Below, piece after piece: positions 7,601 through 58,401 of a stretch of DNA of 64,000 nt. Position 1 is the stretch's first letter. Each line of letters starts with the position of its first letter. The notes under the pieces were generated by a model. That model worked only from the letters and a program-made list of their open reading frames with translations, was not told the origin of the DNA and ran no database searches. The translations under genes and the position numbers were made by a program. The stretch comes from Candidatus Latescibacterota bacterium. Lineage in GTDB: Bacteria; Latescibacterota; UBA2968; UBA8231. The stretch covers positions 4,608,001 to 4,672,000 of the forward strand of contig OZ242005.1 of the NCBI GenBank assembly GCA_965204725.1, in the 5' to 3' direction.

Positions 7601-8422
7601 GCAGGTGAACTGCTGGCTTTGTCCGGTGGCCTACACCGGCATGCGCTGGCAATTTTCTCAGAGCGGATAGGTTGGTTTTACGAGACTAATTATGAGTGGT
7701 CGGAAAAGAATCTACTTTCGGTTCTCGACTCCAGCGACCTTCACGATAGGGACGCTTTTTGGAGCGGGTTTTTCTATGCATCAGTAAACCAAGAGCTGTT
7801 TATGCTCTTAAAGCCGCATTTACTCCAACTCGCAAGGGAGAATAGTGAGACTCATCGTAAGCACAGCCAAGGACTTTCAAGGATTATTTTAGACAGGTGG
7901 GGGAGCATTATTGAAGGAACGAGTGATCGTTGTATTTCCAATGAGGAATTCAGGGATGTGCTAGTGCAGGCGGATGATGAATTTCGATCTCACGTGTTAC
8001 GGCAGATGACGAATCTGTTATGCAATAAAAAACAAGAAACGAGAAACAAATGGACATCATGGTTGCCAGAGTTCTTAAGAGATGTATGGCCTCTTCATAG
8101 AAAGGCGAACTCGCCGGCAGCGTCGGCGTCCTTGTGCGACTTGGTGTTCTCCAATGAAGAGTTATTCCCGGAGTTGGTAGAGATAATTCTTCCGCTTCTT
8201 ACGAAGCTAGACGACCATGCTTGGCGATTGAATCAGACCCAAGCCTGCGCCCAAAAACACCCCCGTCACACGCTGGACCTCTTGTATGCAGTGCTGCCGG
8301 GCAACGTTTCAGGTTGGCCCTATGGCATCGGAGATATATTTGCGTCCATAAGCGAAGGCGAGCCTGCCCTAAGAACCGACGAGAAATTCCTCGAATTAAA
8401 GCGACGGTGGGACTCCCGATAA
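4634..8422 (+). CDS. dsr1: SIR2-domain anti-phage sirtuin, Dsr1-like (1262 aa)
   Basis: N-terminal SIR2 motifs FCGAGIS, TTNFD, HLHG, FVGY; start MRFFENGPAIPDELL and size resemble Dsr1; lower GC than flanks. Confidence 0.75.
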   Translation: MRFFENGPAIPDELLHARDEGRVVFFCGAGISQAKAGLPDFFGLAEKVMETLGVQADSPARKLLDEARNFEARTGVAGVIPADRIFGLLEREFSTDVIESAVASALRPGDEPDLTAHCIILDLATTREGLVRIVTTNFDRLFDNCGRSLSSWQRPRLPNPSRPKDMDGIVHLHGKATSDYRGAEGDGFILSSSQFGQAYLSEGWATSFFREIIDRYVVVFVGYAADDPPVHYLLEGLNKQINERQVYAFQEGAADDAASKWNHRGVQAISYAEDSGHTALWDTLEAWAQRARDPDKWYSEVINKAKQGPQSLLPHERGQVAHVVSTVEGVRNFSEGEEPPPAEWLCVFDKYRRYGQPGRLGGWFREGPYVDPFDLYRIDSDVPPDKASPKGHSSKRKVPTDAWDAFALNRVDRANLNDDNFPSITGLWAYNVPPLPPRLRQMGAWIRAITGEPAAVWWAVRQNPLHPEIRAEIRQALTSSQRPISSAVREAWYYLFECWEQSRDRHADSGDWYGLISKDGWSRSTVRAYAACSRPYLLKVEPHYGQHPKPPEPQDEIRRNDLISLEVAYPDHTKETNIPDEYIAPVVAILRKNLEIALELETEIGRYGLSQVSSIVSDNDTAENRTHGLSRAVINFTSVFERLMQINLKAARRDFSKWLVEDDTIFARLRIWAAGKPDLVSDDQFGPVLADVSDKAFWDESHEWDLLHTLSSRWNGLSKDICVEIEKRLLKGCSRWRKEEEEDFKKRRDRSILARIIWLSRKGCKLCSNLEEATNRLRELVPEWNPENSDEVVRCWGTEGGIVRTEDDHSALLDIPLASVLSEAYRRSERRDDPFVEYNPFAGLSAARPVRAFSALRVAAKEGDFPDWAWNTFLNAEKRKTDKLRFVVLIAERLARYLNNGVTVLVWPAASWLENMSGSFSGQYSASFRRVTDALIRSLAEEPESDASGVWQVGGVRDWATIAFNAPVRKVAQALRPYQKTDPSAFLNYAGELLALSGGLHRHALAIFSERIGWFYETNYEWSEKNLLSVLDSSDLHDRDAFWSGFFYASVNQELFMLLKPHLLQLARENSETHRKHSQGLSRIILDRWGSIIEGTSDRCISNEEFRDVLVQADDEFRSHVLRQMTNLLCNKKQETRNKWTSWLPEFLRDVWPLHRKANSPAASASLCDLVFSNEELFPELVEIILPLLTKLDDHAWRLNQTQACAQKHPRHTLDLLYAVLPGNVSGWPYGIGDIFASISEGEPALRTDEKFLELKRRWDSR

Positions 8423-8432
8423 CTCGGCAAGA

Positions 8433-10904: not shown

Positions 10905-10924
10905 GACGATGGGTTGCGGACTGA

Positions 10925-11974
10925 TTAAGGACGGGTCGCTTCCGCATTTTGCCGCCTAATGGGATATTGCGGAAGGTCGCGCTCAATTTCTCGGTCGTAG
11001 AGTTCAGTGAAGGTATCCGCAATCGCGTTGGGATGAATGTCGAGATAGTTACTTGCCGTGCGACAAGCTATCTCGCCCGTCTCGTCAAAGTATAGCGAGT
11101 GGAAGGCGACCGCATCCTCGGCTCGCGTACGGAGGTCAATCTCCTTGAGAACGACGTAGTCGTGAGTTGCTAGGAATACCTGAACGCCAGCGCGTTGCAG
11201 TTGCAGCAGGACATCAATTAGCGCACCTAACAGCTTAGGGTTCAGGTTGGTCTCAGGCTCATCCCAAAACAGTACCGAACCGTTCTGCAAAGTGCCATTT
11301 TGTATTAAAAGCCACAACAATCCCAACTTACGCATGCCCTCGGCAAGCAGGGTGAACTCCAAGGTTCCCTTTTTGTTCTTGAGAAAAAACTCCTCACTCT
11401 TGATCGTCACTTTTCCATCGATCTCTTCTTGCAAACGAGCGAGCAAACGTCTGTTCAGAGCATCCGACTTGCCGCGCAGTAACGGGATGTAAGCCCGGTC
11501 CAGAATATCCGCATAAACTTCTTCAAAGTGTATTTCGCGTTCCGAGTAAAGCGAGCGAAAGCCAGGTGCATTAGAGAGCATCTCCTTCACCGGAATATAG
11601 GTGCTTTTTAATGAAGAATCTTTCCAAGAATCAGCACCAGTTACAGAAACATAGGCGGAATTTGGTGATTTAATGCGATTGGAGAAACGGACTCCCAATC
11701 GTCGGTCGCCGCGATACACGTCCACGGATGCGACTCCCGGCTGCCGTTTGACGAGGCGTCCTAGGAAGCGGCCTGACGGAAGTAGCACCCGCATCAACTT
11801 CTCGGCGAAGTGGACGTCCGCTTTAGAAGAGTCACACGCCGCATATAGGACCTTCATCAAATGGGTCTTGCCGGTGCCGTTTGCGCCCACTAAGACGTTA
11901 ATCCCGGGGCAAAGCTCCAATTCCAAGTTCGAGAACGCAGTAAAGCGTCTCAATTGTACTTTCGTCAGAGTCAT
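10925..11974 (-). CDS. ABC/AAA_21-type ATPase (defence-associated type)
   Basis: Walker A GANGTGKT, signature LAEGMRK, Walker B LFWDEPE, H-loop ATH; no TM partner. Confidence 0.85.
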   Translation of the reverse strand: MTLTKVQLRRFTAFSNLELELCPGINVLVGANGTGKTHLMKVLYAACDSSKADVHFAEKLMRVLLPSGRFLGRLVKRQPGVASVDVYRGDRRLGVRFSNRIKSPNSAYVSVTGADSWKDSSLKSTYIPVKEMLSNAPGFRSLYSEREIHFEEVYADILDRAYIPLLRGKSDALNRRLLARLQEEIDGKVTIKSEEFFLKNKKGTLEFTLLAEGMRKLGLLWLLIQNGTLQNGSVLFWDEPETNLNPKLLGALIDVLLQLQRAGVQVFLATHDYVVLKEIDLRTRAEDAVAFHSLYFDETGEIACRTASNYLDIHPNAIADTFTELYDREIERDLPQYPIRRQNAEATRP

Positions 11975-25602: not shown

Positions 25603-26075
25603 AAACCATTATCATCGCCGCCTTGAGCAAGAACAGGGTCATTGGCCGCGACAACGCCATCCCTTGGCGCTACCCGGCCGACCTAAAGCACTTCCGCCGC
25701 GTCACGTGGGGCCACGCGGTCGTGGCGGGCCGCAAAACCTACGAGACCTTTCAGACGCGCCCCTTGCCCCAGCGCCTCAACTTCGTCGTCACCCGCAAGC
25801 CAGACTACCCAGTCGCCAAGGGCGTGGTGGTCTGCGCGAGCTTGGCCGAGGTGTTGCAGCGCGCCCGCACTCTCGGTCGCGCAAAACTCTTCGTGCTCGG
25901 CGGCGGCCAAATCTATGAGCAAGCCCTGCCCTTAGCCGACGAAATGATCCTGACGCACCTACCTATCGAAGTTGAGGGCGACGTGTATTTCCCAGCATGG
26001 GACGAAGGGGAATGGGAGACGGTGGAAAGGCGCGGCGCAGGCGACTTGGTCTTTGCGACGTATCGCCGCCGCTGA
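25599..26075 (+). CDS. folA: Dihydrofolate reductase
   Basis: IG..N.IPW..P.DL, GRKT, RPLPQR, GGGQIY, GDVYFP. Confidence 0.93.
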   Translation: MKTIIIAALSKNRVIGRDNAIPWRYPADLKHFRRVTWGHAVVAGRKTYETFQTRPLPQRLNFVVTRKPDYPVAKGVVVCASLAEVLQRARTLGRAKLFVLGGGQIYEQALPLADEMILTHLPIEVEGDVYFPAWDEGEWETVERRGAGDLVFATYRRR

Positions 26076-26085
26076 GGATGTACGC

Positions 26086-26120
26086 AAAAAGGGCCTGCGT
26101 TTCAGCAGGCCCTCTTTCTC
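26086..26120. terminator. Bidirectional intrinsic terminator
   Basis: AAAAA-GGGCCTGC-GTTTCA-GCAGGCCC-TCTTT between convergent genes. Confidence 0.75.
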
Positions 26121-26146
26121 AATACGCGCCACCGAATTGACTCGGC

Positions 26147-26404
26147 TCACTCCACGACGACGACGTTGTTCTCGGAGCCAAATTCGTTGGGCACGACCGG
26201 GGCCTTGGGGTCGTTGCGCCATTCGCCGTCAATCTGATAGCGGTATTCGTACCGCCCCGGAGTCAGGGTGGTCCACGTCGTCCACAGGCCCTTTTTCTGC
26301 TGCCGCAACGACCGCCGTTCCCAGTTGTTAAAATCACCCAACACCGCAACGGCGTTCGCGCTGGCAACCTGCAAGCGAAAGTAAACGCGTTTTTTGCTCG
26401 TCAT
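26147..26404 (-). CDS. Small glycogen-binding (CBM48/isoamylase early-set) domain protein
   Basis: V.G.FNNW, L.PGRYEYRY.IDG.W..DP, N.FGSEN; start at ATG 26404. Confidence 0.85.
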   Translation of the reverse strand: MTSKKRVYFRLQVASANAVAVLGDFNNWERRSLRQQKKGLWTTWTTLTPGRYEYRYQIDGEWRNDPKAPVVPNEFGSENNVVVVE

Positions 26405-26541
26405 AGCAATCCTCAGTAGAATATCAAGAGTGGAAAAAGTGGTCTTAGTAACGATAGATGCAATCCCGCAGAAGTCAAGGATAGGACTTCTCCGCTCTAA
26501 CATTCATTTTTTTCAATCCCCTATTTGCCGGAGGTCGTGTT

Positions 26542-28122
26542 ATGCTCGGTGTACGCCATTCCTCGTCTCCTATTCGGTTGCGTCCCAAGCTCGTGCGTCC
26601 GGCGAGGGGCTGTCTGGTGCTGTTGCTGCTGGTGCCTGTTGGGCTTTTGGGGCAAGAGACGCGGCAGGTGACCTTGTACACACCGGATGGCTCGCAGCAG
26701 CGGCTGCTCAGTGCGCCGCTGGAGGTAGATGTGAAGCTACCCATCCCACCCCTTCCCGAGCACGATCCTGTCTCAGAAGTGATCGGCACGGGCACGGGTA
26801 CACGGCGAACAGAGATGGAGGTTGTGGTTAGTGACAGCGCGGGTGGGCAATCGACGATCAGCTATGCGCATGGAAAAATTGGGGCCTTAGCGGCGGACCC
26901 GTCGGGCAATGTGTGGGTGGCGACGTCAGCGGGTCTGAGCCGGTTCGATAGCGGGCAGTGGACGACCTTTACCCAAGCGGATGGCTTGGCGGACGACCAT
27001 ATCCACTCGGTGGTCGTGGATGGTCAGGGTCAGGTGTGGGCTGGGAGTTTGAATGGGCTTTCCCGCTTTGACGGCCAGCGCTGGACCCGCTATCGGTTTG
27101 AAGAGAGATGGGGCCGCGAGATCGCGATAGCACCGAATGGGGATATGTGGTGTACCGGCGGCCAAGATTTCCTTCTAGCACGTTTTGACGGGCAGGCTTG
27201 GTGGACCTACGACCATGCCGATATGGGGATCATCGGACTAGCACGTTTTCACTGGCAGGGTTGGTCGACCTACGACCACGCCAATATGGGGATCATCGAA
27301 AGCGAGGCGAGCTTCGATGACGTCCACGTTACCAACATTGCGGTTGATCGGTCCGGCACACTCTGGGCGGTTCTTGAGTTCTGGAAACACCTAGACTCAG
27401 GGTGGACGAGGAGATGGAACCGCCTGCTCACGTTCAATGGGACACAGTGGACGTCATACCAGTCACGCCTGTTAGACTCCCCCAAGAGGCTCCAGATGAT
27501 CTTCCCGGACAGCCAAGGTCGCGTCTGGTTGGATTGTGCGGCATTGTGTGTCACGGACGGTTCGACGTGGAAGTCCTACTATAACGAGCTCGGGATATTC
27601 TGGAATGTTTTTGAGGTGACAGAGGACGCCGAGGGCCGACTGTGGATCGTGGTAGGGAGCCACTTTGGTATGTTGGAGGGGACCACTTGGACCGGGTTCT
27701 CTTGGGAGGAGTTCCGAGTCGCTCGTGCCCCGGTCTTCGACAGTCGGGGTGATCTGTGGATTCCCTCATACGAGGGCCTGTACCGATGGCACCGTACCGA
27801 TCTACCTACGGCGATTGCATCCTCGTCTATGTCCGGTGCGCCGCATTCGTTCCACCTAGCACAGAATTATCCCAACCCCTTCAATCACGCCACGCACATC
27901 GGCTTTACCCTCCAACAGCCATCGGCGGTATCGCTGCAAGTGTTCAACACCCACGGTCAGTTGGTGGCCACCTTGGTAGAAGGCATGCGGCCGGCGGGGA
28001 CCTATCAGACAGCTTGGGACGGACGCGATGCTCACGGCCAAGTCGTCAGCAGTGGGGTGTATATTGTGCGGCTAGACGCCGAGGGTCGGCAGGCTACTCG
28101 CAAGATGCTGCTGATTCAATAA
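26542..28122 (+). CDS. Secreted Reg_prop-type beta-propeller with FlgD-Ig/T9SS-like C-terminal domain (copy 1)
   Basis: D..G.VW....GL.RFDG..W blades; QNYPNPFN...WDG.D..G..VSSGVY...KMLLIQ. Confidence 0.8.
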   Translation: MLGVRHSSSPIRLRPKLVRPARGCLVLLLLVPVGLLGQETRQVTLYTPDGSQQRLLSAPLEVDVKLPIPPLPEHDPVSEVIGTGTGTRRTEMEVVVSDSAGGQSTISYAHGKIGALAADPSGNVWVATSAGLSRFDSGQWTTFTQADGLADDHIHSVVVDGQGQVWAGSLNGLSRFDGQRWTRYRFEERWGREIAIAPNGDMWCTGGQDFLLARFDGQAWWTYDHADMGIIGLARFHWQGWSTYDHANMGIIESEASFDDVHVTNIAVDRSGTLWAVLEFWKHLDSGWTRRWNRLLTFNGTQWTSYQSRLLDSPKRLQMIFPDSQGRVWLDCAALCVTDGSTWKSYYNELGIFWNVFEVTEDAEGRLWIVVGSHFGMLEGTTWTGFSWEEFRVARAPVFDSRGDLWIPSYEGLYRWHRTDLPTAIASSSMSGAPHSFHLAQNYPNPFNHATHIGFTLQQPSAVSLQVFNTHGQLVATLVEGMRPAGTYQTAWDGRDAHGQVVSSGVYIVRLDAEGRQATRKMLLIQ

Positions 28123-28133
28123 AAGGAAGTGCC

Positions 28134-28241
28134 CTAAGTACGCGGCACCTACTTTGCGTACGCATTTTCTGCTGTTGCCGATGCGTCCGGGACCGAGGAC
28201 AAGATGCCCTCGATCCTTGAAGGCTGGTGTCGTATAGCAAG
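28134..28241. mobile_element. MITE copy 2 (degenerate, no clean TSD)
   Basis: Ends CTAAGTACGCGGCAC / GTGTCGTATAGCAAG; core homologous to the other two copies. Confidence 0.7.
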
Positions 28242-28297
28242 GGTTTAGCCGCTCGCCGATAGAATGGATTTCTCATCTCTCACGGAGGAGACGTATC

Positions 28298-29107
28298 ATG
28301 AAAATGAAGAAGATTCGCTTGCTCTTGGTAGTGCTGCTCGGCTTGAGCCGGGTGCTGCCAGCCGACGCCACGGACGACGAGGCGTCGGATTACCTGCCGC
28401 TGGCCGTGGGCAATTCGTGGACCTACGGCTACTGGTACTATGACCGAGTCAATGAGTTGGACAGTGTTGAGCGGTATCCCGCGTACTATAAATGGCCGGA
28501 TCGCGATGAATCTATCCAACTCCCCAAGTTCACCATCACGGTGCGGGGCACGGAGGTCATCGATGGTAAGACGTATTACGTGCTCAGTGATATGCCCGCC
28601 AATTGGCCACCGGCCCCCCCGCACTTCATCGCCGGCAAGAAGCTACGCTGGGCGGGTACGCACCTGATGGAACGCACCGCCGATGGCGAGCAGGCCATCT
28701 TTCGCTTTGACGGGGCTACCGACGATTATAGCCCGACCGATTCCCACTATGGAGGATATCTGAATTTCCGCTTTGAGGAATCGAAGGTGTACAGGACCGA
28801 ATACGCCATCCCAACGACGGAGGGAGACAACCGGGTCGAAGTGGAAGCGGGTCTGAAACCGGTACCGTGGTATGTGTTCCAGTTTTATGGCAACGATGTA
28901 GGGGGGCGTATGTGCGTCTTTCTTGCAGGCTACGGTTGCAATCTGTGCGGGTGGGGAGTATTCGGATCCGATGTTTTCTTGTTCTTCAACGAACTGACCC
29001 CTCTCCGAGCGGTTATCGACGGCACTTCGGTGGAATTTGCCGATGCGTTAGTTCCTACGAACATCTCGTCGTCGTCTTGGGGCCAAGTCAAGAAGGAGGT
29101 TCACTGA
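28298..29107 (+). CDS. Secreted hypothetical protein with SWGQVK C-terminal tag (copy 1)
   Basis: Signal peptide, YLPLAVGNSWTY motif, GGAGG RBS; near-identical paralog at 34945. Confidence 0.8.
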   Translation: MKMKKIRLLLVVLLGLSRVLPADATDDEASDYLPLAVGNSWTYGYWYYDRVNELDSVERYPAYYKWPDRDESIQLPKFTITVRGTEVIDGKTYYVLSDMPANWPPAPPHFIAGKKLRWAGTHLMERTADGEQAIFRFDGATDDYSPTDSHYGGYLNFRFEESKVYRTEYAIPTTEGDNRVEVEAGLKPVPWYVFQFYGNDVGGRMCVFLAGYGCNLCGWGVFGSDVFLFFNELTPLRAVIDGTSVEFADALVPTNISSSSWGQVKKEVH

Positions 29108-29226
29108 TGTACAATAGATACGTATTGCTCGCTATCCTCTTGATACAGACGCTCGGTGCGTCTGTTGTCGGTGCTCGCGGAGTCGGGCGTATCTTCGTGC
29201 TGACACGACATATCCCTGTACGGTAG
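29107..29226 (+). pseudogene. Truncated 5' remnant of the giant protease gene
   Basis: MYNRYVLLAILLIQTLGAS identical to the gene at 35754; small deletion shifts frame and it stops at 29226. Confidence 0.8.
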
Positions 29227-29264
29227 TTCCACAACCCCCTATCACGAGCACGATCTGCTCAACA

Positions 29265-29478
29265 GGACGAGTGACGACGGCTAACCAACGAAGCGTAGAA
29301 AAGCCCCTTCTACATTTTAAGCTCCTGTTTTTTTCAATCCTTTAGGGCATTCCTGAAGGATTTTTTTGTGCGTGGTCGGCTCGTTGGGATGCAGATAGCC
29401 TCTGTTCATTCGTTATATCTCGTTGCATGTTTAGACAAACATATATTCCATCCCCCCTTTGATGGAGGTCGTGTTATG
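29265..29478 (+). promoter_or_regulatory. Repeated cassette A: UAS palindrome, IHF-like site, hairpin/U-tract, sigma54 -24/-12, RBS
   Basis: GTAGAA-N7-TTCTAC 29295-29313; hairpin 29336-29367; GG(29386)-N10-GC(29398). Confidence 0.65.
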
Positions 29479-29626
29479 AGTGGAATCATACCCACGGGTT
29501 GGCCGAACTCCAGCCCGAACGGGTGTAGTAGCCTGTGTTTGATTTTGACGGTTCTCGGCAACGCCGATGAACAAACACTTATTCAAACGAACAAAAGTAT
29601 ATTCAAACCAACAAAAGGTTGTTCAC

Positions 29627-29770
29627 GTGACGAGCAACAAAGGCTGAGTGGCGAAGCGTAGAAAAATTTCTCCTACATTTCTAACATTCATGTTTTTCAA
29701 TCCTTTAGGGACATTCCTAAAGGATTTTTTTGTGCGTGGTGCGGCCCGTTGGCACACAATATGCGTATAT
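29627..29770 (+). promoter_or_regulatory. Repeated cassette B with near-consensus sigma54 promoter
   Basis: GTAGAA 29658; perfect stem AATCCTTTAGG/CCTAAAGGATT plus T-tract; TGGCACACAATATGC (GG 29751, GC 29763). Confidence 0.75.
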
Positions 29771-29848
29771 GCCAGCGGAGTTGAAGCCGAGCGTATTTGA
29801 AAACCTTGTCCTCGTGTACACGGGGGCAGCCTTCAAAGGAGACTTCTA

Positions 29849-31852
29849 ATGAAGAAGAGGATTCGCTTGATCCTGACGATTCTGCTCAGCTTGAGCGGGG
29901 CGTTGCCAGCCGCCGCCACGGACTACGAGACCGCGAACGATCTGCTGCTAGTTTTTCTCCCCTTGGCCCCGACAACCTTGGTCGCGGAACCCGGCGATGG
30001 CGCGGCCATGTTACGCTGGGACTATCCGCACCACGCTATCGATGATTGGCAATATCGACAGAATGCAGGGGACTGGCAGGATATACCCGACGCCGACGAG
30101 TATAGGGTGACGGACCTGACTAATGGGGCCACCTACACCTTTGAGGTGCGGGCACACAACGCCTCCGGGTGGGGTCCGGCCTCGAATACGGCGACGGTGA
30201 CGCTCAACGCCGCGCCGATGATCACGGGCCTCGAAAGGGCCTCTTTTGCTGAAAACGGCCAAGGGCCGGTGACCACCTTCTTGGCCCGCGATGCAGAAGG
30301 CGACCCAATTACGTGGTCGCTGTCGGGGCGGGATGCAGGGGCTTTCACGTTCACCACCGACGTGGAACGCAATACGATGGACCTTTTGTTCCAGTTGGTG
30401 CCCGACTACGAACATCCTTCCGATGTTTCTCCTACTGACAACGACTATCAGGTGACCCTAGTGGCCTCCGACCACGGCCTGCCAGCGCTTTCTACCAACT
30501 ACTTGGTGACAGTGAGGGTGGTAAATGTGGATGATGCCGGTTCGATGCCGGTGATGGCCGAGCCAGAGCGGTCTCGCCACACCTCGCAGGCCGAGTATGT
30601 GGGCCGGGTGATGCGGGCCGTATTCAGGTACTACAAAGGCATTATAGCTTGGGTGTTGCGGGGCGCGGTCAATCACGTGCGCGACGTATTCGGTGCCGGC
30701 AAGCGCACCCAGCGCGATGCGGACGCGCTGGCGCAAGCAAAGGTGCCGGATGCGCCGAAGGTGTCGGTGGACTCGGCTGCGACTCGGGTGGACGTGTCGG
30801 TGTTCAAGCCCGCGTCCAACGGCTCAGCACTGACTGCCTATGAGTACCGTCTGGTCATAGACCGCCTACAGGAAAAGGTAGAGCGGGTGGCCAAGAGGAG
30901 TACGAAGGTGCTGCTGTTGGGCGAGACCGGCGTGGGCAAGGGCTTACTCGCCCGAGTCATCCACCACAAGAGCCTGCGCTGCACGAAAGACTTCATCTCC
31001 GTCAATTGCGGTGCCTTACCCCCCGGCTTGGTCGAAAGCACACTGTTCGGCCACGAGAAAGGGGCCTTTACGAGCGCGGTAAGCCAGCACATCGGCTATT
31101 TTGAACAGGCACACGGCGGCACCTTGTTCCTCGATGAGATCGGCGATTTGCCGCTGGACTCGCAACGGGTGTTGCTCAAAGTCTTGGAGGATCGTTGCCT
31201 GACCCGGGTTGGCGGCAGGAAGTCGATCCCAATAGATGTGCGGATCGTGGCGGCGACCAATCGCGATCTACAACGAGCGATCCGGGAAAAGACGTTCCGG
31301 GACGACCTGTACTATCGCTTGAACGTGTTTCCGTTGAGGTTGCCACCGTTGCGGGATCACCAGGAGGATATTCCGCTGTTGGCGGATTATTTTTTGCGCT
31401 GGTATGCCAAGGAGCAACAGCAGTCAGTGCTGACGTTGAGCGACGAGGCACTGGCATACTTGCAGGGGTATGCTTGGCCGGGGAATGTGCGCGAGTTGGA
31501 TCACTGGATTCAGCGGGCGTTAATCATGTGCGATGGGGAGCGCATTGAGGTGGCGGATGTGTTGACGGCAGAAGCCATGGAAGCGGAGTTGTCGTCTTCG
31601 GCGGCTACTTTGCCGGTTGCACCGGAGGCTGAAGGCGCGGGAGCGATGCAGCCGGTTGATGAGAAGCAGCGAATTGCTGAGGCCCTTCGGCTCACCAATT
31701 GGGTGGTCTCTGGAAACCGGGGAGCGGGGCGCTTGTTGGGTATGAGCGCGCAGACGCTGAGGTATCGGATGCGCAAGTATGGGATACAACGGCCGAAGGA
31801 AGAGCTTGGGCCGGAGGATTGGGAAAGGTTGTCTCGACAAGCGATTACATGA
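29849..31852 (+). CDS. Chimeric protein: signal peptide-FN3-cadherin-(partial FN3)-sigma54 activator AAA+-Fis HTH
   Basis: GETGVGK, ESTLFGHEKGAFTSA, FLDEIG, WPGNVREL, TLRYRMRKYGI; FN3 YTFEVRA; cadherin PDYE..D...DNDY. Confidence 0.8.
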   Translation: MKKRIRLILTILLSLSGALPAAATDYETANDLLLVFLPLAPTTLVAEPGDGAAMLRWDYPHHAIDDWQYRQNAGDWQDIPDADEYRVTDLTNGATYTFEVRAHNASGWGPASNTATVTLNAAPMITGLERASFAENGQGPVTTFLARDAEGDPITWSLSGRDAGAFTFTTDVERNTMDLLFQLVPDYEHPSDVSPTDNDYQVTLVASDHGLPALSTNYLVTVRVVNVDDAGSMPVMAEPERSRHTSQAEYVGRVMRAVFRYYKGIIAWVLRGAVNHVRDVFGAGKRTQRDADALAQAKVPDAPKVSVDSAATRVDVSVFKPASNGSALTAYEYRLVIDRLQEKVERVAKRSTKVLLLGETGVGKGLLARVIHHKSLRCTKDFISVNCGALPPGLVESTLFGHEKGAFTSAVSQHIGYFEQAHGGTLFLDEIGDLPLDSQRVLLKVLEDRCLTRVGGRKSIPIDVRIVAATNRDLQRAIREKTFRDDLYYRLNVFPLRLPPLRDHQEDIPLLADYFLRWYAKEQQQSVLTLSDEALAYLQGYAWPGNVRELDHWIQRALIMCDGERIEVADVLTAEAMEAELSSSAATLPVAPEAEGAGAMQPVDEKQRIAEALRLTNWVVSGNRGAGRLLGMSAQTLRYRMRKYGIQRPKEELGPEDWERLSRQAIT

Positions 31853-31924
31853 CCTAGACAGTGCGCGGGATATTGTTGAGCAGTATCCCGCGTACTAACT
31901 AAATGATCGACCCGCGAATCTATA

Positions 31925-32090
31925 GGACGAGTGACGACGGCTAACCAACGAAGCGTAGAAAAGCCCCTTCTACATTTTAAGTTCATGTTTTTCAATCCTT
32001 TAGGGCATTCCTGAAGGATTTTTTGTGCGTGATCGGCTCGTTGGGATGCAGATAGCCTCTGTCCATTCGTTATATCTCGTTGCATGTTTA
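31925..32090 (+). promoter_or_regulatory. Repeated cassette C (its 5'UTR interrupted by the IS)
   Basis: Near-identical to cassette A; GG(32043)-N10-GC(32055); UTR resumes at 32935. Confidence 0.65.
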
Positions 32091-32934
32091 GAAGCTATCT
32101 CATAAATACCGTAGCAGTATGAGGATGCATCCGAGTTGTACAAAGCCGAGGTAGTTTTCAGCATAGTATTCGTATCGAACCACGATGCGGCGGAAGTTAT
32201 GCAACCAAGCAAACAGTCTTTCTATTTTCCAGCGTCTTTTGTAGCCCCGCAACCGCCGCCCGTCCTGGGTTTTGGCCTGCGTACGATTGCGGCGATGCGG
32301 CGCGATCATCTCAATGCCTTGGTCGGCCAGGCTCGCATCCAATCGATCCGAGTCGTAGGCTCGGTCCCCGATGAGTCGTTGCGGTCGGGGCTGGACCCAT
32401 CGGTTTTCCAGGGTGGCTTCTACGAGGGTGACTTCGTGCGGCGAAGCACTTTGGATGAGTACGGCGATAGGAAGACCAGCGCGGTCTGCCACTGCCATGA
32501 GCTTCGTACCTTTGCCCCGCTTGGTCGGACCCACTTGGTCCCCCCTTTTTTCGCCGCGACAAACAGGCCATCGATGAAGCATTCGCTCACATCAAGGCCC
32601 CCGCGCTCATGCAAGTCGTGCGCGAGGGTGCGCAGAATATGTTCAAAGGTGCCATCAGACGACCACTGTTGGAATCGACGATGGCAGGTCTGGTAGGACG
32701 GATAGCGAGCAGGCAGGTCATGCCCAGGCGCCCCGGTGCGGAGAATCCACAGAATACCATTGAGCACCGCTCGGTTACAACGCCACGGACGACCCCGGCC
32801 ATCGCGGCGTTTGGGACACGCCGGCAGCAGTGGGGACACTATCGACCACTGTTCGTCTGTAAGATCCATAAGAGATACCTCCGAAAGGGAATACCACTAA
32901 CGTAGCACAGCCAGACTATTTATGAGATAGCTTC
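32091..32934 (-). mobile_element. IS5 family element (IS427-like), 844 bp
   Basis: Perfect 18-bp TIR GAAGCTATCTCATAAATA; TA duplication; the uninterrupted site is visible in cassette A. Confidence 0.92.
32100..32869 (-). CDS. IS5-family transposase, two ORFs joined by probable -1 frameshift
   Basis: OrfA 32869-32420 (DLTDEQW, RFQQW); OrfB to 32100 ([17 protein letters not shown]); slippery A6G6 at 32540-32551. Confidence 0.88.
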
Positions 32935-32978
32935 TAGACAAACATATATTCCATCCCCTATTTGCCGGAGGTCGTGTT

Positions 32979-34556
32979 ATGCTCGGTGTACGCCATTCCT
33001 CATCTCCTATTAGGTTGCGTCCTAGGCTCGTGCGTCCGACGAGGGGCTGTCTGGTGCTGTTGCTGCTGTTGCCTGTTGGGCTTTCGGGGCAAGAAACCCA
33101 GCAGGTGACCCTATATACGTCGGATGGCTCGCAGCAGCGGCTGATCAGTGCGCCGCTGGTGGTCGATGTGGGACTACCCAGCCCGATGGAGGCCCCTATC
33201 TCAGCGGTGATCGGCACGGGCACGGGTACGCGGCGGACGGAGGTGGAGGTCGTCGTCCGTGACAGCGCGGGTAGGCAATCCAGCTATGCGAAAGGAGGGG
33301 TTCGGGCCTTGGCGGCTGACATGTCGGGCAATGTGTGGGTGGGGACTTCAACGGGTCTGAGCCGGTTCGATGGCCAGCAGTGGATGACCTTCACGTACGA
33401 TCACATCCGCCTGGCCGTCCGCTCGCTGGCCGTGGATGGTCAGGGGCAGGTGTGGGTCGGAAATTGGGGGGATGTCACCCGGTTCGATGGCCAGCACTGG
33501 ACCTGCTATAAAGGACTATGGGGACACAGGATCGCGGTAGCACCGAATGGGGATGTGTGGTGTACCGGCACCGTCTACGGAAGTTCGGTTGGGTTCTCCC
33601 TGCTGGCGCGTTTCGACGGGCAGGCTTGGTGGACCTACGACTACGCCGATATGGGGGTCGTTGATAGCGAGCCTTGGTGGACCTACGCCATCGGCCTGCT
33701 GGAGCGTTTCGACGAGGAGGGTGGGTGGTGGAAAGAGGCCAATATTACACGGGGCTTTAGTAGCGTCCTCGTTACCGACATCGCGGTTGATCGATCCGGC
33801 ACACTCTGGGCGGTTCTTGAGTTTTACAAGCCTAGGGGCACCTCTGGGGAATATATATGGAGTAGCCTGCTCTCCTTTGATGGGACGCGGTGGACATCGT
33901 ACTTGGGCAGTTTCGGGAATATCTTCTCTGACAGCCAAGGTCGCGTTTGGTTGGATTGTGGGGTATTGAGTGTCAAGGACGGTTGGACGTGGGGATTGTG
34001 TTTCAAGGAGGGTTCGACGTGGAGGTATTACAAAGGTTTGAATCTTTATAATTGGGGGGCTGCCAGGAGCCGCCTGTGGGCGAGGAAAGGAGAGTATTTT
34101 GGCATGCTGGAGGGGACCACTTGGACCGGGTTCTCTTGGGAGGAGTTCCGAGTTGAGCATGCCCCGGTCTTCGACAGTCGGGGTGATCTGTGGATTCCCG
34201 CACGCGATGGCCTGTACCGATGGCACCGTCCCGATCTACCTACGGCGATTGCATCCTCGTCTATGTCCGGTGCGCCGCGCTCGTTCCACCTAGCACAGAA
34301 TTATCCCAACCCCTTCAATCACGCCACGCACATCGGCTTTACCCTCCAACAGCCATCGGCGATGTCGCTGCAAGTGTTCAACACCCACGGCCAGTTGGTG
34401 GCCACCTTGGTAGAAGGCATGCGGCAGGCGGGGACCTATCAGGCTGCTTGGGACGGGCGCGATGCTCACGGCCAAGCTGTCAGCAGTGGGGTGTATATTG
34501 TGCGGCTGGACGCTGAAGGGCGGCAGGCTACTCGCAAGATGCTGCTGATTCAATAA
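32979..34556 (+). CDS. Secreted beta-propeller with FlgD-Ig/T9SS-like C-terminal domain (copy 2)
   Basis: Paralog of 26542..28122 with conserved ends and divergent core. Confidence 0.8.
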   Translation: MLGVRHSSSPIRLRPRLVRPTRGCLVLLLLLPVGLSGQETQQVTLYTSDGSQQRLISAPLVVDVGLPSPMEAPISAVIGTGTGTRRTEVEVVVRDSAGRQSSYAKGGVRALAADMSGNVWVGTSTGLSRFDGQQWMTFTYDHIRLAVRSLAVDGQGQVWVGNWGDVTRFDGQHWTCYKGLWGHRIAVAPNGDVWCTGTVYGSSVGFSLLARFDGQAWWTYDYADMGVVDSEPWWTYAIGLLERFDEEGGWWKEANITRGFSSVLVTDIAVDRSGTLWAVLEFYKPRGTSGEYIWSSLLSFDGTRWTSYLGSFGNIFSDSQGRVWLDCGVLSVKDGWTWGLCFKEGSTWRYYKGLNLYNWGAARSRLWARKGEYFGMLEGTTWTGFSWEEFRVEHAPVFDSRGDLWIPARDGLYRWHRPDLPTAIASSSMSGAPRSFHLAQNYPNPFNHATHIGFTLQQPSAMSLQVFNTHGQLVATLVEGMRQAGTYQAAWDGRDAHGQAVSSGVYIVRLDAEGRQATRKMLLIQ

Positions 34557-34662
34557 AGTGTTGCCTTGGCCTTAGCAGCTTGAGCGGCGTGGTTCCGACG
34601 ACCAAAAAGTTGTTCACATAAAGAAAAAGCTGCCCAACATGACCAAAAAGCTATCCAACATG

Positions 34663-34800
34663 GTGAGCAACAACGGCTGATCTGCTAAGTGTAGAAAAGT
34701 TCCTTTTACATTTTTTAAGTTCATGTTTTTCAATCCTTTAGGGTAATCCTGAAGGATTTTTTTGTGCGTGGTCGGCTCGTTGGCACGAAATGTGCTTATA
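34663..34800 (+). promoter_or_regulatory. Repeated cassette D with near-consensus sigma54 promoter
   Basis: GTAGAA 34691; hairpin 34732-34763; TGGCACGAAATGTGC (GG 34782, GC 34794). Confidence 0.75.
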
Positions 34801-34944
34801 GCTGATTGAAGTCGAAGCCGATGCAGGAAAGGAGGCCGCGCTCGGTATTCGGTATATTGATCATTCCGCACCACTCACATTCCGTCTCTGTCTGGCCGCT
34901 CGCCGATGGAACGGATTTCTCATCTCTCACGGAGGAGACGTATC

Positions 34945-35754
34945 ATGAAAATGAAGAAGATTCGCTTGCTCTTGGTAGTGCTGCTCGGCTTGAGCCGGGT
35001 GCTGCCAGCCGACGCCACGGACGACGAGGCGTCGGATTACCTGCCGCTGGCCGTGGGCAACTCGTGGACCTACGGCCACGATTACTATGACCTATTCAAT
35101 CATTTGGATGCGGTTCAGTGGTATCCCGCGTACTATAGATCTTCGACCCTCGATGAATCTACCCAACTTCCCAAGTTCACCATCACGGTGCAGGGCACAG
35201 AGGTCATTGATGGCAAGACGTATTACGTGCTCAGCGATATGCCCGCCTATTGGCCGCCAGCCCCCCCGCACTTCATCGCCGGCAAGAAGCTACGCTGGGC
35301 GGGTACGCACCTGATGGAACGCACCGCCGATGGCGAGCAGGCCATCTTTCGCTTTGACGGGACCACCGACGATTATAGCCAGACCGATTCCTTCTATGGA
35401 GGATATCTGAATTTCCGCTTTGAGGAATCGAAGGTGTACAGGACCGAATACGCCATCCCAACGACGGAGGGAGACAACCGGGTCGAAGTGGAAGCGGGTC
35501 TGAAACCGGTACCGTGGTATGTGTTCCAGTTTTATGGCAACGATGCAGGGGGGCGTGCGTGCGGCTTTCTTGCAGGCTACGGTTGCAATCTGTGCGGATG
35601 GGGGACATTCGGCTCCGATTTTCTCTCGTTCTTCAACGAACTGACCCCTCTCCGAGCGGTTATCGACGGCACTTCGGTGGAATTTGACGATGCGTTAGTT
35701 CCTACGAACATCTCGTCGTCGTCTTGGGGCCAAGTCAAGAAGGAGGTTCACTGA
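34945..35754 (+). CDS. Secreted hypothetical protein with SWGQVK tag (copy 2)
   Basis: Near-identical to 28298..29107; stop overlaps the next start (TGATG). Confidence 0.8.
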   Translation: MKMKKIRLLLVVLLGLSRVLPADATDDEASDYLPLAVGNSWTYGHDYYDLFNHLDAVQWYPAYYRSSTLDESTQLPKFTITVQGTEVIDGKTYYVLSDMPAYWPPAPPHFIAGKKLRWAGTHLMERTADGEQAIFRFDGTTDDYSQTDSFYGGYLNFRFEESKVYRTEYAIPTTEGDNRVEVEAGLKPVPWYVFQFYGNDAGGRACGFLAGYGCNLCGWGTFGSDFLSFFNELTPLRAVIDGTSVEFDDALVPTNISSSSWGQVKKEVH

Positions 35755-38700
35755 TGTACAATAGATACGTATTGCTCGCTATCCTCTTGATACAGACGCT
35801 CGGTGCGTCTGAGGTCGGTGCTCGCGGTTCGGCGATTACGGGTCGGGCGTCTCTTCGTGCGGACACGACATATCCCTGTACGCTGGATGTGGTGTTGGTC
35901 ACCTTCCAAAATGCGACAGTGCGCGTGGGCAACTTCGACTATCACCTCCATGACCGGCCCCACGGCTCCAACGACGACGGGACGTATCCTGACCCTGATA
36001 CTAGTTACACGTTGCGCGATTTTGAACGGCTGTTCAGCGGCGGCTACGGTCGCTTGGAGAATTTGCCTCTTGTCGGCGACACGGTCACGGTGGGCAATCG
36101 GGAGGCTAACCGCGAGACGCTGAAGGAAGTGTTCGGCAGTGTGCGGGCGTATTACGACTCGGTGTCCAATGGGGCGTTCCAACTGCACGTGCGCATGATC
36201 AATCCGGCCGATGACAACGGATTCCCTCGCTGGGTCGAACTGCCGCAAACCAAGGCCCGTTATGACAGGACCAACTTGACGATAGGTGAGCACCGATTCT
36301 GGCGAGACGCGTATGCGGCGGCGTGGGATTCGGTGCGCTGCTGGAATTCGGATCCGAATCTATTCCCTCCGGATCCTCCTAACTGCGGGGCGTCGGTAGA
36401 AGGATACGCCATCGATGACCTCCCCAATAACTCTTACAATACTGATCGCCGCTTACGTCGTAAAGTGGTTTACCTGTATTCCGGGACGACCTATCACAAC
36501 TACGGCCTGCTACATCCGCATGCGGATAGGACTACACTGCCCAACCCAAGTCCAAGGTTTCCCACAGATGTCGGCTACCGCTATGTCATGGGTGAGCGTC
36601 AAGGCTGGGGCAACAACGACGATGACATTGACGAGTTCGCCGGTATCGGCATGCACGCCCATGAAATCGGCCATCTGCTGGGCCTCCATCACGGGGACGG
36701 CCTGTGGACTGATCCCGATAATCAGTATGTTGATGGCGCACAAGAATATAACAATGATGGTGGTGCCAACATGCTGGGGTGGACGTTGATGCAAGGCGGG
36801 GGCGAACAGGGGCCGGCATTAGAAGACACCAATAACGATGAGGGTGAGCGATTAGTAGGTTACCGCTCGTGCCCCAATCCGATCAATCCCTTTTACCTGA
36901 TGGACCTCGGCTGGATCAATCCGCCCACGATTAGTGGGAGTCAGGATAATTACGCCATCGCGGCTGGGACGACCCATCGGATTGACCGCGGCGGGGTTTC
37001 CTATTTACTCAATCGCCGCACGACTCAGCCGTTTGGCGGGCGCTACCTCGCGTTCTACGACTACGCCGCCGAAGACAGCGAAGATCAGGGTCTGATGATT
37101 TGGCGGCGAGAGATTAACGGGGAAGAGCGGCCGATTCTGATCGTCGCCGACGGAAGGCGTTACCGAGACGCTCGGCCGGGGTATCCCCGGAGGGAATACT
37201 TTGACATGCTCTCCGACCCGTTCCCGGGCAGGGAGAACATCACGGCGGTTGATGCTCTGTCAGACTCAGTAGGTCTGCGCCAAAAAACCTATCCTAGCAT
37301 TGACAGGAATAGACAACCTCGCGGCGAGAACGTGGACCCGGGCCGCTTGAACTTGGCACTTACCGACATAACCTACAATAGCACCACCGATGTGATAACG
37401 GTGGACATCTACATGGCCCCTCCGACTACCCCGACCGGTCTGACGGCGGCAACCCAAAACGGGCAGGTGACGTTGAGTTGGCGGCCTCTGTCCTACTCTG
37501 GTCCCCCGCCTAGCTACGAGTACCGACAGAGCATCGATAGGGGCACCAATTGGGGAGAGGAGATACAGGTAGATGCCAATGCGTGTAGCCAGACGGTGTG
37601 CAGTCAGACGATAAGCGGGCTGACCAATAGTACGGACAACGCTTTCGCGGTACGGGCAGTCAACCCCGTAGGTTCCAGCGACTGGGTAAGCATACGCCCC
37701 TTGGTGCTGGCAGGCTCGACCGCGATAGAGGGTTTTTCCGAGGTCGTCTCGCCCGAGCCCGGCCGTCGCACGGTGGCTAACTACACGGCGACCGATCCGG
37801 AGGGCGGCTCGATTACGTGGTCCTTGGGGGGTACGGACGCGGCGGATTTCCTCCTGAGTCCGAACGGTCAGTTGACCTTTCGGACGGGTCCAGACTTTGA
37901 GGCCCCGACGGACCAAGATACCGACAATATCTACCAAGTGACCGTGCAGGCCAGTGCCGGGCAGCAGTCGGCGGCGCTAGACGTGACCGTGACCGTGACG
38001 AATGCGAATGATCCCGGCGTATTGTCGCTGGGTACATCCCCGCCGCAGGTGGGGGTGCCGTTGACAGCCGAACTGACCGACCCAGATGGGGGGGTGAAGC
38101 ACCTAAGCTGGCAATGGCATGGACAGCAACCGCCTACGACGGTGTGGCGATCTCTTATGGAGGAGGGGTCGGACAACTCGTCTGCGAGCTATACGCCGAA
38201 GGCCGAGCAGGTGGGCTGGGCGCTGCGAGCAATGGTCAAGTCCTATCACGACGCACTCGGCGGGAACAGTACTGTTACGAGCACGACGACCGATCCGGTG
38301 CGAGCCGGGGTGCCGGGTGCGCCACCGAATTTTATACCCTCGCCGGGGGATGGTCGCGTGGTCTTGGGGTGGGATGCGGCTTCGACCAATGGCTCGCCCA
38401 TCACTCGCTATGACGTTCAATGGCGGGTGGCCAATTCGGGGCACGGCTGGCCGGGTTGGTCCCCTGTGTTGGGCGGCGGCACTGCCCGCGATAGTACGGT
38501 TACAGGACTGACCAATGGGGTGCTCTACGAGTTCGCGGTGCGAGCGGTCAACAGCGCTGGCGGGGGTCCGTCGGCCTCGCAATCAACGATACCGCAGGCG
38601 CCGCCGCAGAATTGGTCCGGGACCGCATCGTTTGGGGCCGTGTCGTACCAAGCGACCGAAGGGGGTGCTAGCGCGTCCATCACGGTGTCGCTGTCGCCAG

Positions 38701-41587
38701 CACCCGCGCAGACCTTGCACATTCCGGTGGTGGTGTCGGCGGATGCGGGCACTGAGGCGGGCGACTACGCGGTGGCGAATCTGACGGATGGAACGGTGTG
38801 GTTGTCGTTTGCCGCTGGCACATCGTCGCAGTCGTTTACCCTGACGGCCAACGAGGACACCGATATTGCCGACGAGACCGTGACGCTGTCGTTTGGGAGT
38901 CTGGTTTCGGGAGTGGCCGTCGGTACGACGCGACAGGCGACGGTGACGCTGCTCGACAACGATACCGATCTCATGCCGACGTTCGCCTCGTTGGGCACTT
39001 CCAGAGCCGCGGTTGCGGGCCAGTATTTTAGTTTTACTCGTCCGTCGGCCAGCGGCGGCAATGCCCCTTTGAGCTACTCGGCCAGCGGTGCCTGCTCTGG
39101 CCTAGCGATTAGGGCCTCGTCGGCCAGCGGAGTCCCTAACTCAATCGGCCAATGTAGGATTACTTGGACGGTTACAGACTCCGATGGCGACACGGACACG
39201 TACTTGCTCCGAGTCGCGGTTGTCGCCGACACCGAGCCTACGTTTGCCTCGTCGGGGGCTTCCAGATCCGTGATTGCAGGCCAGTCTCTCAGTTTTGCCC
39301 GTCCATCGGCCAGCGGTGGCAACGCCCCTTTGAGCTACTCGGTCAGCGGCACCTGTCCCGGCCTAACGGTTACGGCCTCTGAGGTCAGCGGGTCGCCCAC
39401 CACGGCAGGAGAGTATGCGATTACTTGGACGGTGCGCGATACGGATGGCGACACGGACACGTACTCGCTGCAAGTCGCGGTGGCCGCCGACACCTCTCCT
39501 GCGTTTGCCGCGTCGGGCGTCTCCAGATCCGTGATCGCGGGCCAGTCTTTCAGTTTTACTCGTCCATCGGCCAGCGGTGGCAATTTGCCCTTGACGTACT
39601 CGGTCAGCGGCAGTTGCGATGGCCTAACGGTTACGACCTCTGCGGTGAGTGGCTCGCCGAGGACGGCTGGACAGTGTGGGATTACTTGGACAGTACGGGA
39701 CACCGATGGCGACACGGACACGTACTCGCTGCAAGTCGCGGTGGCCGCCGACACCTCGCCTACGTTTGCCGCGTCGGGTGTCTCAGAGGGCGCGATTGTA
39801 GGTCAGCCTTTCAGTTTCAGCCGTCCGTCGGCTAGCGGCGGCAACTCGCCCTTGCGCTACTCGGTTAGCGGCAGTTGCGATGGCCTAACGGTTACGACCT
39901 CTGCGGTCAGCGGAACACCTAGCTCGACCGGGCAATGTGGAATTACTTGGACGGTGCGCGACACCGATGGCGACACGGACACGCACTCGCTGCAAATTTC
40001 CGTGGCCGCCGACACCTCGCCTACGTTTGCCTCGTCGGGTGCCTCAGCGGGCGCGATTGTGGGTCAGCCTTTCAGTTTCAGCCGTCCGTCGGCTAGCGGT
40101 GGCAACTCACCTTTGCGCTACTCGGTCAGCGGCAGTTGCGACGGCCTAACAGTTACGACCTCTGCGGTCAGCGGAAAGCCTACCACAGCAGGAGAGTATG
40201 CGATTACTGGACGGTGCGCGACTCCGATGGCGACACGGACACGTACTCGCTGCAAGTCACGGTTGCGGCTGACACCTCTCCTACGTTTGCTTCGTCAAGC
40301 ACCTCAGAGGACGCGATCGTAGGGGTGAATTTCAGTTTTACCCGTCCGTCCGCCAGTGGCGGCAACTCGCCCTTGCGCTACTCGGTCAGCGGCAGTTGCG
40401 ATGGCCTAACGGTTACGACCTCTGCGGTCAGTGGAACACCTAGCTCGACCGGGCAATGTGGAATTACTTGGACGGTGCGCGACACCGATGGCGACACGGA
40501 CACGCACTCGCTGCAAATTTCCGTGGCCGCCGACACTTCGCCTACATTTGCTTCGTCAAGCACTTCGAGGTCTGCGATCACGGGCCAGTCTTTCAGTTTT
40601 AGCCGTCCGTCGGCCAGCGATGGTAACTCGCCTCTGCGCTACTCGGTCAGCGGCAGTTGCGCTGGCCTCACAGTTACGACCTCGTCGGTCAGCGGGTCGC
40701 CGCGATCGGCCGGCCGATGTGGGATTACTTGGACGGTACGTGACACGGATGGCGACACGGATACGCACTCGCTGCAAATTTCCGTGGCCGCCGACACCTC
40801 GCCTACGTTTTCCTCGTCAGGCACTTCCCGGTCTGTGATCGCAGGCCAGTATTTCAGTTTTAGCCGTCCGTCGGCCAGCGGTGGTAATTCGCCTCTGCGC
40901 TACTCGGTCAGCGGCAGTTGCGCTGGCCTCACAGTTACGACCTCGTCGGTCAGCGGATCACCGCGGTCGGCCGGCCGATGTGGAATTAGCTGGACGGTGC
41001 GCGACACCGATGGCGACACGGATACGTACTCGTTGCAGATTTCCGTAGCCGCCGACACCTCGCCTACATTCGCCTCGTCGAGCACTTCGAGGTCTGCGAT
41101 CACGGGCCAGTATTTCAGTTTTAGCCGTCCGTCGGCCAGCGGTGGTAACTCGCCCTTGCGCTACTCGGTCAGCGGCAGTTGTGCTGGTCTAACGGTTACG
41201 ACCTCGTCGGTCAGCGGATCACCGCGGTCGGCCGGCCGATGTGGAATTAGCTGGACGGTGCGCGACACCGATGGCGACACGGATACGTACTCGTTGCAGA
41301 TTTCGGTTGCCGCCGATAGGTCCCCTACGTTTTCCTCATCGGGGGCGTCTAGGTCCGCGATTGTGGGTCGGTATTTCAGTTTCACCCGTCCATCGGCTAG
41401 GGGCGGCAACTCGCCTCTGCGCTACTCAGTCAGCGGCAGTTGCGCTGGCCTCACGGTTACGACCTCGTCGGTCAGCGGTTCGCCGCGGTCGGCCGGCCAA
41501 TGTGGGATTACTTGGACGGTACGCGACACCGATGGCGACACCGCCACGTACTCGCTGCAACTAAGCGTCCGTCAACTTGGGGCTTGA
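35754..41587 (+). CDS. Giant secreted M6-like zinc metalloprotease/adhesin (FN3, cadherin, Calx-beta, 10 Ig-like repeats), frameshifted near 40208
   Basis: GSVRAYYDSVS.G, HEIGHLLGLHH; ORFs 35754-40322 and 40136-41587 are joined by a 1-bp deletion in repeat 5. Confidence 0.8.
38976..41575 (+). repeat. Ten tandem 261-bp (87-aa) Ig-like repeats
   Basis: Unit starts 38976, 39237, 39498, 39759, 40020, 40280, 40541, 40802, 41063, 41324; motif ASGGN.PL.YS...D(T/S)DGDT. Confidence 0.95.
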
Positions 41588-58285: not shown

Positions 58286-58401
58286 CTAAGTACGCGACAC
58301 TTGCGTTGAGTCCGCCTTTTCTGGCGTTGCCGCTGCGTCCGGGATCGAGGGCGTCCCGCCCTCGATCCTAGAAAGGTTGACCGCTGGTGTCGTGTAGTAA
58401 G
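58286..58401. mobile_element. MITE copy 3 with perfect 9-bp TSD
   Basis: TAGCTCCAG at 58277-58285 and 58402-58410; ends CTAAGTACGCGACAC / GTGTCGTGTAGTAAG. Confidence 0.88.

Follow-up and report, generated by a model that had tools for sequence, protein, structure and literature searches.

A repeated sigma-54-type promoter core with exchangeable upstream palindrome arrays, probably read by activator helices, in a genus of Candidatus Latescibacterota

The NifA-dependent nifH and NtrC-dependent glnH promoters consist of an upstream activating sequence (UAS), a binding site of IHF (integration host factor), and a -24/-12 element. PspF and HrpRS are sensor-less activators of such promoters, those of the PspF type being constitutive, and Myxococcus is known for cascades of enhancer-binding proteins (EBPs). 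According to the available part of PMC13682980, the UAS-IHF-(-24/-12) layout also holds for DmpR and its promoter Po. The accessible text of Kazakov et al. 2015 (PMC4641369) describes numerous EBPs in a Desulfovibrio vulgaris genome, every one having a predicted motif of its own and often lying beside its target, and sigma-54 control of the cell exterior appears as a known theme in the part of PMC3162934 that was available. Here we analysed a 64,000-nt stretch of Candidatus Latescibacterota bacterium (OZ242005.1, positions 4,608,001 to 4,672,000, forward strand; hereafter the window), which carries several copies of a sigma-54-type promoter core around a sigma-54 activator gene. As judged from sequence comparison, the core is genus-wide, and an upstream array of 16-bp palindromes, which is exchangeable and predicted to be read by the Fis-type helix of the activator, probably sets its specificity.

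Like the UAS-IHF promoters (DmpR-Po, NifA-nifH and NtrC-glnH), the locus has the same element order, approximate distances and an AAA+ activator with a Fis-type helix-turn-helix (HTH). In contrast to them, a genome may hold as many as 20 repeats of the core with differing enhancers, the arrays comprise two to five sites, and the IHF-like site overlaps a terminator-like hairpin. The many-EBP, own-motif, beside-target arrangement is that of D. vulgaris, whereas the pairs described here share a core by descent and exchange helix plus array between near-identical genes, an exchange not met in the accessible text of PMC4641369. Short activators (335-420 aa) without a sensor domain and activator genes behind sigma-54 promoters recall PspF/HrpRS and the Myxococcus cascades, but the presumed tiers here are tandem copies of one chassis in surface-protein islands. 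The closest likeness within the genus is to the propeller/Y_Y_Y-AAA+-HTH activators, which belong to the same family and have the same gene-enhancer-promoter layout; the window member differs in being of the short type and deletion-fused to a secreted FN3 protein. Searches of the open-access literature returned nothing on this promoter family, and the words 'sigma' and 'promoter' are absent from the main text of a paper on sponge Latescibacterota (PMC12993501).

The promoter core and its hairpin

The genome-wide search proposed in a preliminary description of this DNA was run with a profile (nhmmer) and returned 12 copies of the core on the contig of the window (C1 of genome G000; loci in relatives are numbered L###), with E values of 1e-19 to 1e-22, far above chance. 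A census with a 171-bp query matched 19 of 24 same-genus genomes, with at most 20 matches per genome, and none of 16 genomes of other families. Additionally, a pattern scan of all species representatives gave 111 stretches, 80 of which were titled as Latescibacterota or carried older 'Gemmatimonadetes' labels for the same kind of bin.

The core comprises, in order, an AT tract, TTTCAA-N4-TTA, a hairpin followed by T7 and the -24/-12 element, and sequence comparison revealed that this single core type carries differing upstream arrays, 130-230 bp from the start. Among 156 unique copies, mostly selected by a pattern containing TGGYAC, GG was kept in 154, GC in 151 and TGGCAC in 140. Because of this selection, the copies outside the pattern, 46 in number, give the fairer figure: GG and GC occurred in 38 of them, TGGCAC in 29 and TCAR-N4-TTR in 31. 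The genome contains rpoN and encodes three HU/IHF proteins, two of which score higher with IHF than with HU models, and the IHF-like site is retained in two other genera (TTCAA-N4-TTG in L213 and L219). These results support the prediction that the core is a sigma-54 promoter with an IHF-like site overlapping a terminator-like hairpin. As for other elements, no Rfam family matched positions 26000-36000 of the window at the gathering score, and sigma-70 sites numbered 6 against 4.6 expected.

The shared hairpin and T tract that had been reported were recovered in each full window copy, with 12 pairs and -14 to -15 kcal/mol. The AT-rich stem has four G-C pairs, and in some copies it is disrupted. 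In 99 distinct rows of an alignment that was partly pattern-selected, and counted without a shuffle control, eight two-sided changes were found at one pair, and another pair showed 33 U-G and three C-G states and was never broken. In L213 and L219, stem letters are altered and pairing is maintained. Compensatory or G-U changes in a stem that precedes a U tract are characteristic of an intrinsic terminator, and the hairpin may thus terminate transcription of the gene upstream while overlapping the IHF-like site. Family-wide conservation supports a presumed spread of the core by duplication, and with it the earlier notion of an insulated module multiplied in this way.

The cassette could instead be a non-autonomous element resembling a miniature inverted-repeat transposable element, or a recombination site, with an incidental promoter, the hairpin being a DNA site for a recombinase or a dimeric protein. 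The up to 20 copies per genome in varied chromosomal places, the many deletion junctions in or near copies and the common 5' boundary of two window copies (A and C, described below) with different flanks are in keeping with such an origin. However, terminal inverted repeats and target duplications were not seen, boundaries vary among aligned copies, the stem changes favour U-G pairs as in RNA, and no linked recombinase was seen in 40 mapped regions, as scored by motif tags rather than full annotation. We consider this explanation very unlikely.

Two side observations concern related promoters. A second, small sigma-54 promoter family with its own common upstream sequence lies at positions 2106893, 2123484, 2128330 and 2137697 of C1 (L008-L010). 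In L161, L173, L174 and L176, copies before short activator genes have kept the IHF-like site and hairpin and have lost the -24/-12 element alike.

Upstream arrays and activator helices

Upstream of the core, most copies carry two to five palindromes of 16 or 17 bp with an A-tract centre and a 20-22-bp period, or 11-bp tandem half-sites, and this array is likely to be the activator binding site (enhancer). In L006, L007, L001 and L003, the 11-bp tandem half-sites, three forward and three reverse, stand in place of the 20-22-bp palindromes. In 61 of the 156 copies, 156-358 bp separate the end of an activator gene from the -24 element, and the sequence of its last helix lies close to the array. 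The residues of LuxO equivalent to this helix are needed for DNA binding, according to the accessible part of PMC11407668.

Helix and array fall into paired classes, namely PE[RK]LRSRMR with CGTAT, PEKLRYR[MI][QK]K with CGTGG/CGTGT, PEKLRY[RY]MRK with CGTTC/CGTGC, xQTLRYRMRK with TGTTC/TGTGC, HQxLVYRMEK with TATGC, and DKTLDY/DRMLQY with TCCCC/TGCCC. Matching was scored in two locus sets, handle loci and titled loci, whose genomes overlap. Arrays without an adjacent activator gene (orphan arrays) matched a helix of the same genome in 33 of 44 cases (13 genomes; mean of the shuffles 19.4, p~0.0004) and, in the second set, in 33 of 46 (17 records; shuffle mean 21.7, p~0.0008), in a test that covered fetched loci, excluded genomes without any found helix and is inflated by kinship. 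The AQTLRYRMRK-type helix, which is that of the window activator, goes with TGTTC arrays in L016, L068, L071 and L088. Moreover, behind an S-type helix in another genus (L212) the predicted ATACG-N6-CGTA array was present, and in an out-of-sample set of 20 fetched activator ends, with promoters read by eye, 9 of the 19 that could be parsed were followed by a sigma-54 promoter. In a different family of this class (L222-L226), the related activators carry PSSTLYG/PPSTLYN helices, and behind them stand other palindromes and a sigma-54 promoter.

In a tree built from 46 AAA domains, 10 changes were counted for the S/Y state of the helix and 9 for the CGTAT array; among independent pairs, five changed the same way, none the opposite way and one tied. 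The tie is probably due to L099, in which a CGTAT array visible in the DNA was missed by the regular expression. The helix class agreed between nearest neighbours in 35 of 38 cases for the tail behind the helix, against 27-29 of 38 for the AAA, pre-helix and core segments. Specifically, L057 and L125 are 96% identical in the AAA domain, 92% before the helix, 67% in helix plus tail and 95% in the core, and the helix and tail of L057 are 85-87% identical to those of other S-type genes; L048 and L038 form the same mosaic (96%/63%/91%). Helix and array are thus swapped together, as one tract. A syntenic site without an activator gene (L005 versus L194) has flanks 90-94% identical and a replaced array, and the two arrays each resemble the one behind the propeller activator of their own genome (L003 and L192; proteins 71% identical), which shows cassette copying within genomes.

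Such copying also feeds another explanation, in which the sigma-54 core is genuine but the helix-array match is hitch-hiking, and the arrays are slippage repeats that are inherited along with the end of the gene and read by another protein or by a looser code. Physical linkage, the copying of a master cassette within a genome, the ambiguous PEKLRYRMRK class and the p value of the tree test are all compatible with it. Against it, the two halves of a palindrome change in concert, as does every unit within an array, there are at least six helix classes with a half-site of their own, and spacing and distance are typical of enhancers. In addition, the match holds in another genus (L212), and TATGC sites lie upstream of TATGC-class activator genes in L164 and L198. 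Hitch-hiking thus seems unlikely to us, albeit the most credible of the alternatives.

Several points nevertheless weigh against the explanation favoured below. The adjacent match, which held for 32 of the 36 handle loci and for 52 of the 55 titled ones, is partly circular, as the helix classes were defined on adjacent pairs, and the two sets share genomes, so that kin are not independent. PEKLRYRMRK is paired with three array types, which gives 4 and 3 mismatches in the two sets; no matching helix was found among fetched loci for 11 of the 44 orphan arrays in the first set and 13 of the 46 in the second; the S-type loci L213 and L219 have only weak CGTAT sites; and 10 of the 19 parsed out-of-sample ends had no promoter behind them. 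The tree test of independence gave p 0.0625, short of significance. The HU/IHF proteins of G000 fall under curated IHF cut-offs, and TTTCAA-N4-TTA has one mismatch to the E. coli IHF consensus, WATCAA-N4-TTR. The window activator bears a signal peptide and may fail to act in the cytoplasm. Finally, helix-array linkage plus orphan copying can yield co-variation without binding; because within-genome copying makes co-variation partly mechanical, binding is something that we infer.

A genus-wide core whose specificity is set by an exchangeable array and its helix remains the explanation that we favour. Activator dimers would bind the upstream array, an IHF-like protein would bend the DNA, and the AAA+ ring would open the sigma-54 polymerase, while the hairpin would block read-through from the upstream gene. 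Crossovers just before the helix and just after the array would swap both together, and because the helix ends the gene and the array comes first after it, the pairs would stay matched. The cassette behind an activator is also copied onto distant targets. Short activators without a sensor, if placed behind TGTTC promoters, would add second tiers and feedback loops that drive FN3/propeller surface proteins. More tentatively, the whole might be a recombination-based specificity switch by which these symbionts rewire the expression of surface proteins, and in which helix-array cassettes of about 150-300 bp are swapped between conserved flanks and copied to distant promoters, giving at least six orthogonal pairs and cascades from sensor to sensor-less activator to adhesin with positive feedback; we hold this to be a real possibility, though not yet a probable one.

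The gain of a new specificity by paralogous sigma-54 activators without loss of targets is hard to observe, and here a mechanism would be visible, namely linked exchange followed by copying to other promoters. Dozens of natural helix-operator pairs on a near-constant background would make a recognition code testable. In sigma-54 circuits, the pairs could serve as orthogonal parts, and they hint at the control of FN3/propeller surface proteins in an uncultured sponge symbiont. The value of the system rests on this exchange and the testable code, not on the decayed copies of the window.

Copies and activator gene of the window

The count of four full copies and one deleted copy was confirmed by alignment (positions are those of the window, forward strand unless stated otherwise). 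The full copies, of about 130 bp, begin at 29255 (A), 29625 (B), 31924 (C) and 34657 (D) and are 80-96% identical. All four contain TTTCAATCCTTTA, at 29332, 29695, 31990 and 34728, and also the reported GG-N10-GC, with the first G at 29386 (A), 29751 (B), 32043 (C) and 34782 (D).

Palindrome arrays, which had not entered the preliminary description, lie upstream of B and D. The predicted enhancer of B (29569-29624) consists of three 16-bp GAACA-N6-TGTTC-like palindromes with a 20-bp period (29569, 29589 and 29609) and is the sole tandem GAACA-N6-TGTTC array on C1 (at most 2 mismatches, 18-24 bp apart). It is followed by a GTAGAA-N7-TTCTAC-like region (29658-29676), the IHF-like site TTTCAA-N4-TTA overlapping the hairpin (29699-29726) and T tract (29695-29733 in all), and the -24/-12 element TGGCAC-N5-ATGC (29750-29765), with a predicted start near 29776. 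By alignment with relatives, the predicted enhancer of D (34600-34656) has three degenerate palindromes with one good TTGTTC half and a 20-21-bp period; the linker, the IHF-like site (34728), the hairpin (34732-34758) and the -24/-12 element TGGCAC-N5-GTGC (34781-34796) follow within 34657-34796, with a predicted start near 34807. Both copies have GG-N10-GC with the TGGCAC/TTGC consensus of sigma-54 promoters. Of the window copies, only B and D look intact, and these two are predicted to work with an AQTLRYRMRK activator.

Copy A (29255-29387) is a core without an array, followed by a propeller-gene leader (29406-29478) and a gene remnant. Its homology to relatives stops at the -24 GG, and the DNA from 29406 is the leader that stands behind the activator 3' end in genome G046. 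Copy C (31924-32044), 96% identical to A, also lacks an array and lies behind a fragment of a gene of the 269-aa family described below; an IS5-family element (32091-32934, reverse strand), with 11 more full-length copies of 96-100% identity in the genome, separates it from the gene at 32979. Copy E (26496-26519, by alignment) breaks off inside TTTTCAATCC and is joined directly to the gene leader, the hairpin and -24/-12 element being deleted. Copies A, C and E therefore look like deletion products, damaged rather than functional variants, with C cut off by the IS5 element. Because the junctions differ among independent assemblies, the data suggest real, strain-variable deletions and not assembly errors.

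The preliminary description had assigned A and C to a TGGGAT promoter type. TGGGAT occurs in 2 of 156 copies, and because homology ends at the GG and the G046 leader adjoins the activator end, it is read as a junction; TGGGAT as a promoter class was ruled out. The same description treated GTAGAA-N7-TTCTAC as the operator to which the local activator binds, and the four copies, those with TGGGAT included, as working promoters within a single self-contained regulon. The palindrome is exact in A and C and has one mismatch each, in the right half, in B and D, at about -115; its left half is moderately conserved in the family alignment, and the GG-N10-GC spacing holds in A and C. However, across 168 copies it is exact in 2 and has at most 2 mismatches in 13, it occurs regardless of the helix of the adjacent activator, and A and C are junctions at GG without an array, in which the flanking sigma-54 consensus is lost. 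Moreover, the 12 genome copies carry differing arrays and go with differing activators, which does not fit a self-contained regulon. We regard this as the least probable of the explanations considered. From the sigma-54 enhancer layout proposed earlier, the promoter and the IHF-like site stand by family-wide conservation, and the upstream array is a better operator candidate than the palindrome named.

A sigma-54 activator is indeed encoded in the locus (29849-31852), by a chimeric gene with a signal peptide, FN3, cadherin-like and truncated FN3 segments, and in frame an AAA+ domain and a Fis-type HTH with the helix AQTLRYRMRK. The Sigma54_activat AAA+ domain has Walker A and B motifs and a GAFTGA-type loop (here GAFTSA), as in bacterial EBPs; the best PDB matches are 2M8G and NifA 9QQ6, and the last helix of the C-terminal HTH aligned to the Fis-type HTHs 2M8G, 9QQ6 and 4L5E. 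The N-terminus has a hydrophobic, signal-like stretch, and a later transmembrane segment is absent from the sequence. A conserved membrane sensor was ruled out, there being no second hydrophobic segment. Among 120 listed homologues, two other fusions were found, each with a different junction and one without Walker A, and the near-identical proteins P0004 and P0005 are unfused FN3 proteins. Since the near-identical proteins in the database either lack the fusion or have the junction elsewhere, the gene appears to be a strain-level deletion fusion behind a signal peptide. As the signal peptide is present without a transmembrane stop, the product may lack activity, except if translation begins at an internal start. 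The propeller protein encoded at C1:4873005, with TGTGC/TGTTC half-sites in its own arrays, is a possible activator in trans. Elsewhere on C1, a short S-helix activator without a cassette behind it was found at 376347, and an isolated HTH remnant at 4900564.

Downstream genes and neighbouring features

Excluding 32 of 175 copies with too little DNA, 99 of the remaining 143 precede a signal-peptide-like open reading frame (ORF) and 25 an activator gene, with 12 followed by other genes and 7 by none; the genome control for signal-peptide-like ORFs, called by the same crude hydropathy rule, was 1006 of 2563. Target genes include those for FN3, Calx-beta, C25/M6-like peptidase and propeller-FlgD proteins. 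In L157, L158 and L198, a propeller activator is followed by a TGTTC promoter, a short HQQLVY activator, a TATGC promoter and an FN3 protein, and TGTTC/TGTGC sites are present in 13 of the 16 intact promoters that precede short activator genes. These arrangements may reflect activator cascades and feedback. LuxO without its receiver domain is constitutive, according to the accessible part of PMC11407668. In L005 and L192-L194, a common leader and short Cys-rich ORFs lie behind the -12 element.

The claim that a copy stands before each secreted-protein gene of the window did not hold: none precedes the gene at 28298, A precedes a remnant and C the IS5 element. Behind copy E, 26542-28122 encodes a 526-aa protein with a signal-peptide-like start, a Reg_prop propeller and an FlgD-Ig tail resembling those of type IX secretion; its 525-aa paralogue (78% DNA identity) is encoded at 32979-34556. 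The gene without an upstream cassette (28298-29107) encodes a 269-aa predicted secreted protein outside Pfam and NCBIfam families, and its paralogue (34906-35754) is the first gene behind copy D. The expected place of the cassette before 28298 is occupied by a 60-120-bp interspersed repeat with hairpin potential (28131-28243, and again at 58286-58401), which has about 75 BLAST matches on C1. A large predicted secreted M6-like metalloprotease/FN3 protein is encoded at 35724-41587, with ten 261-bp coding repeats (38885-41587) and a frame break near 40322. Finally, a SIR2-like protein, an MmeI-like type IIL enzyme and an AAA_21 ATPase at 4634-11974 likely form a defence cluster.

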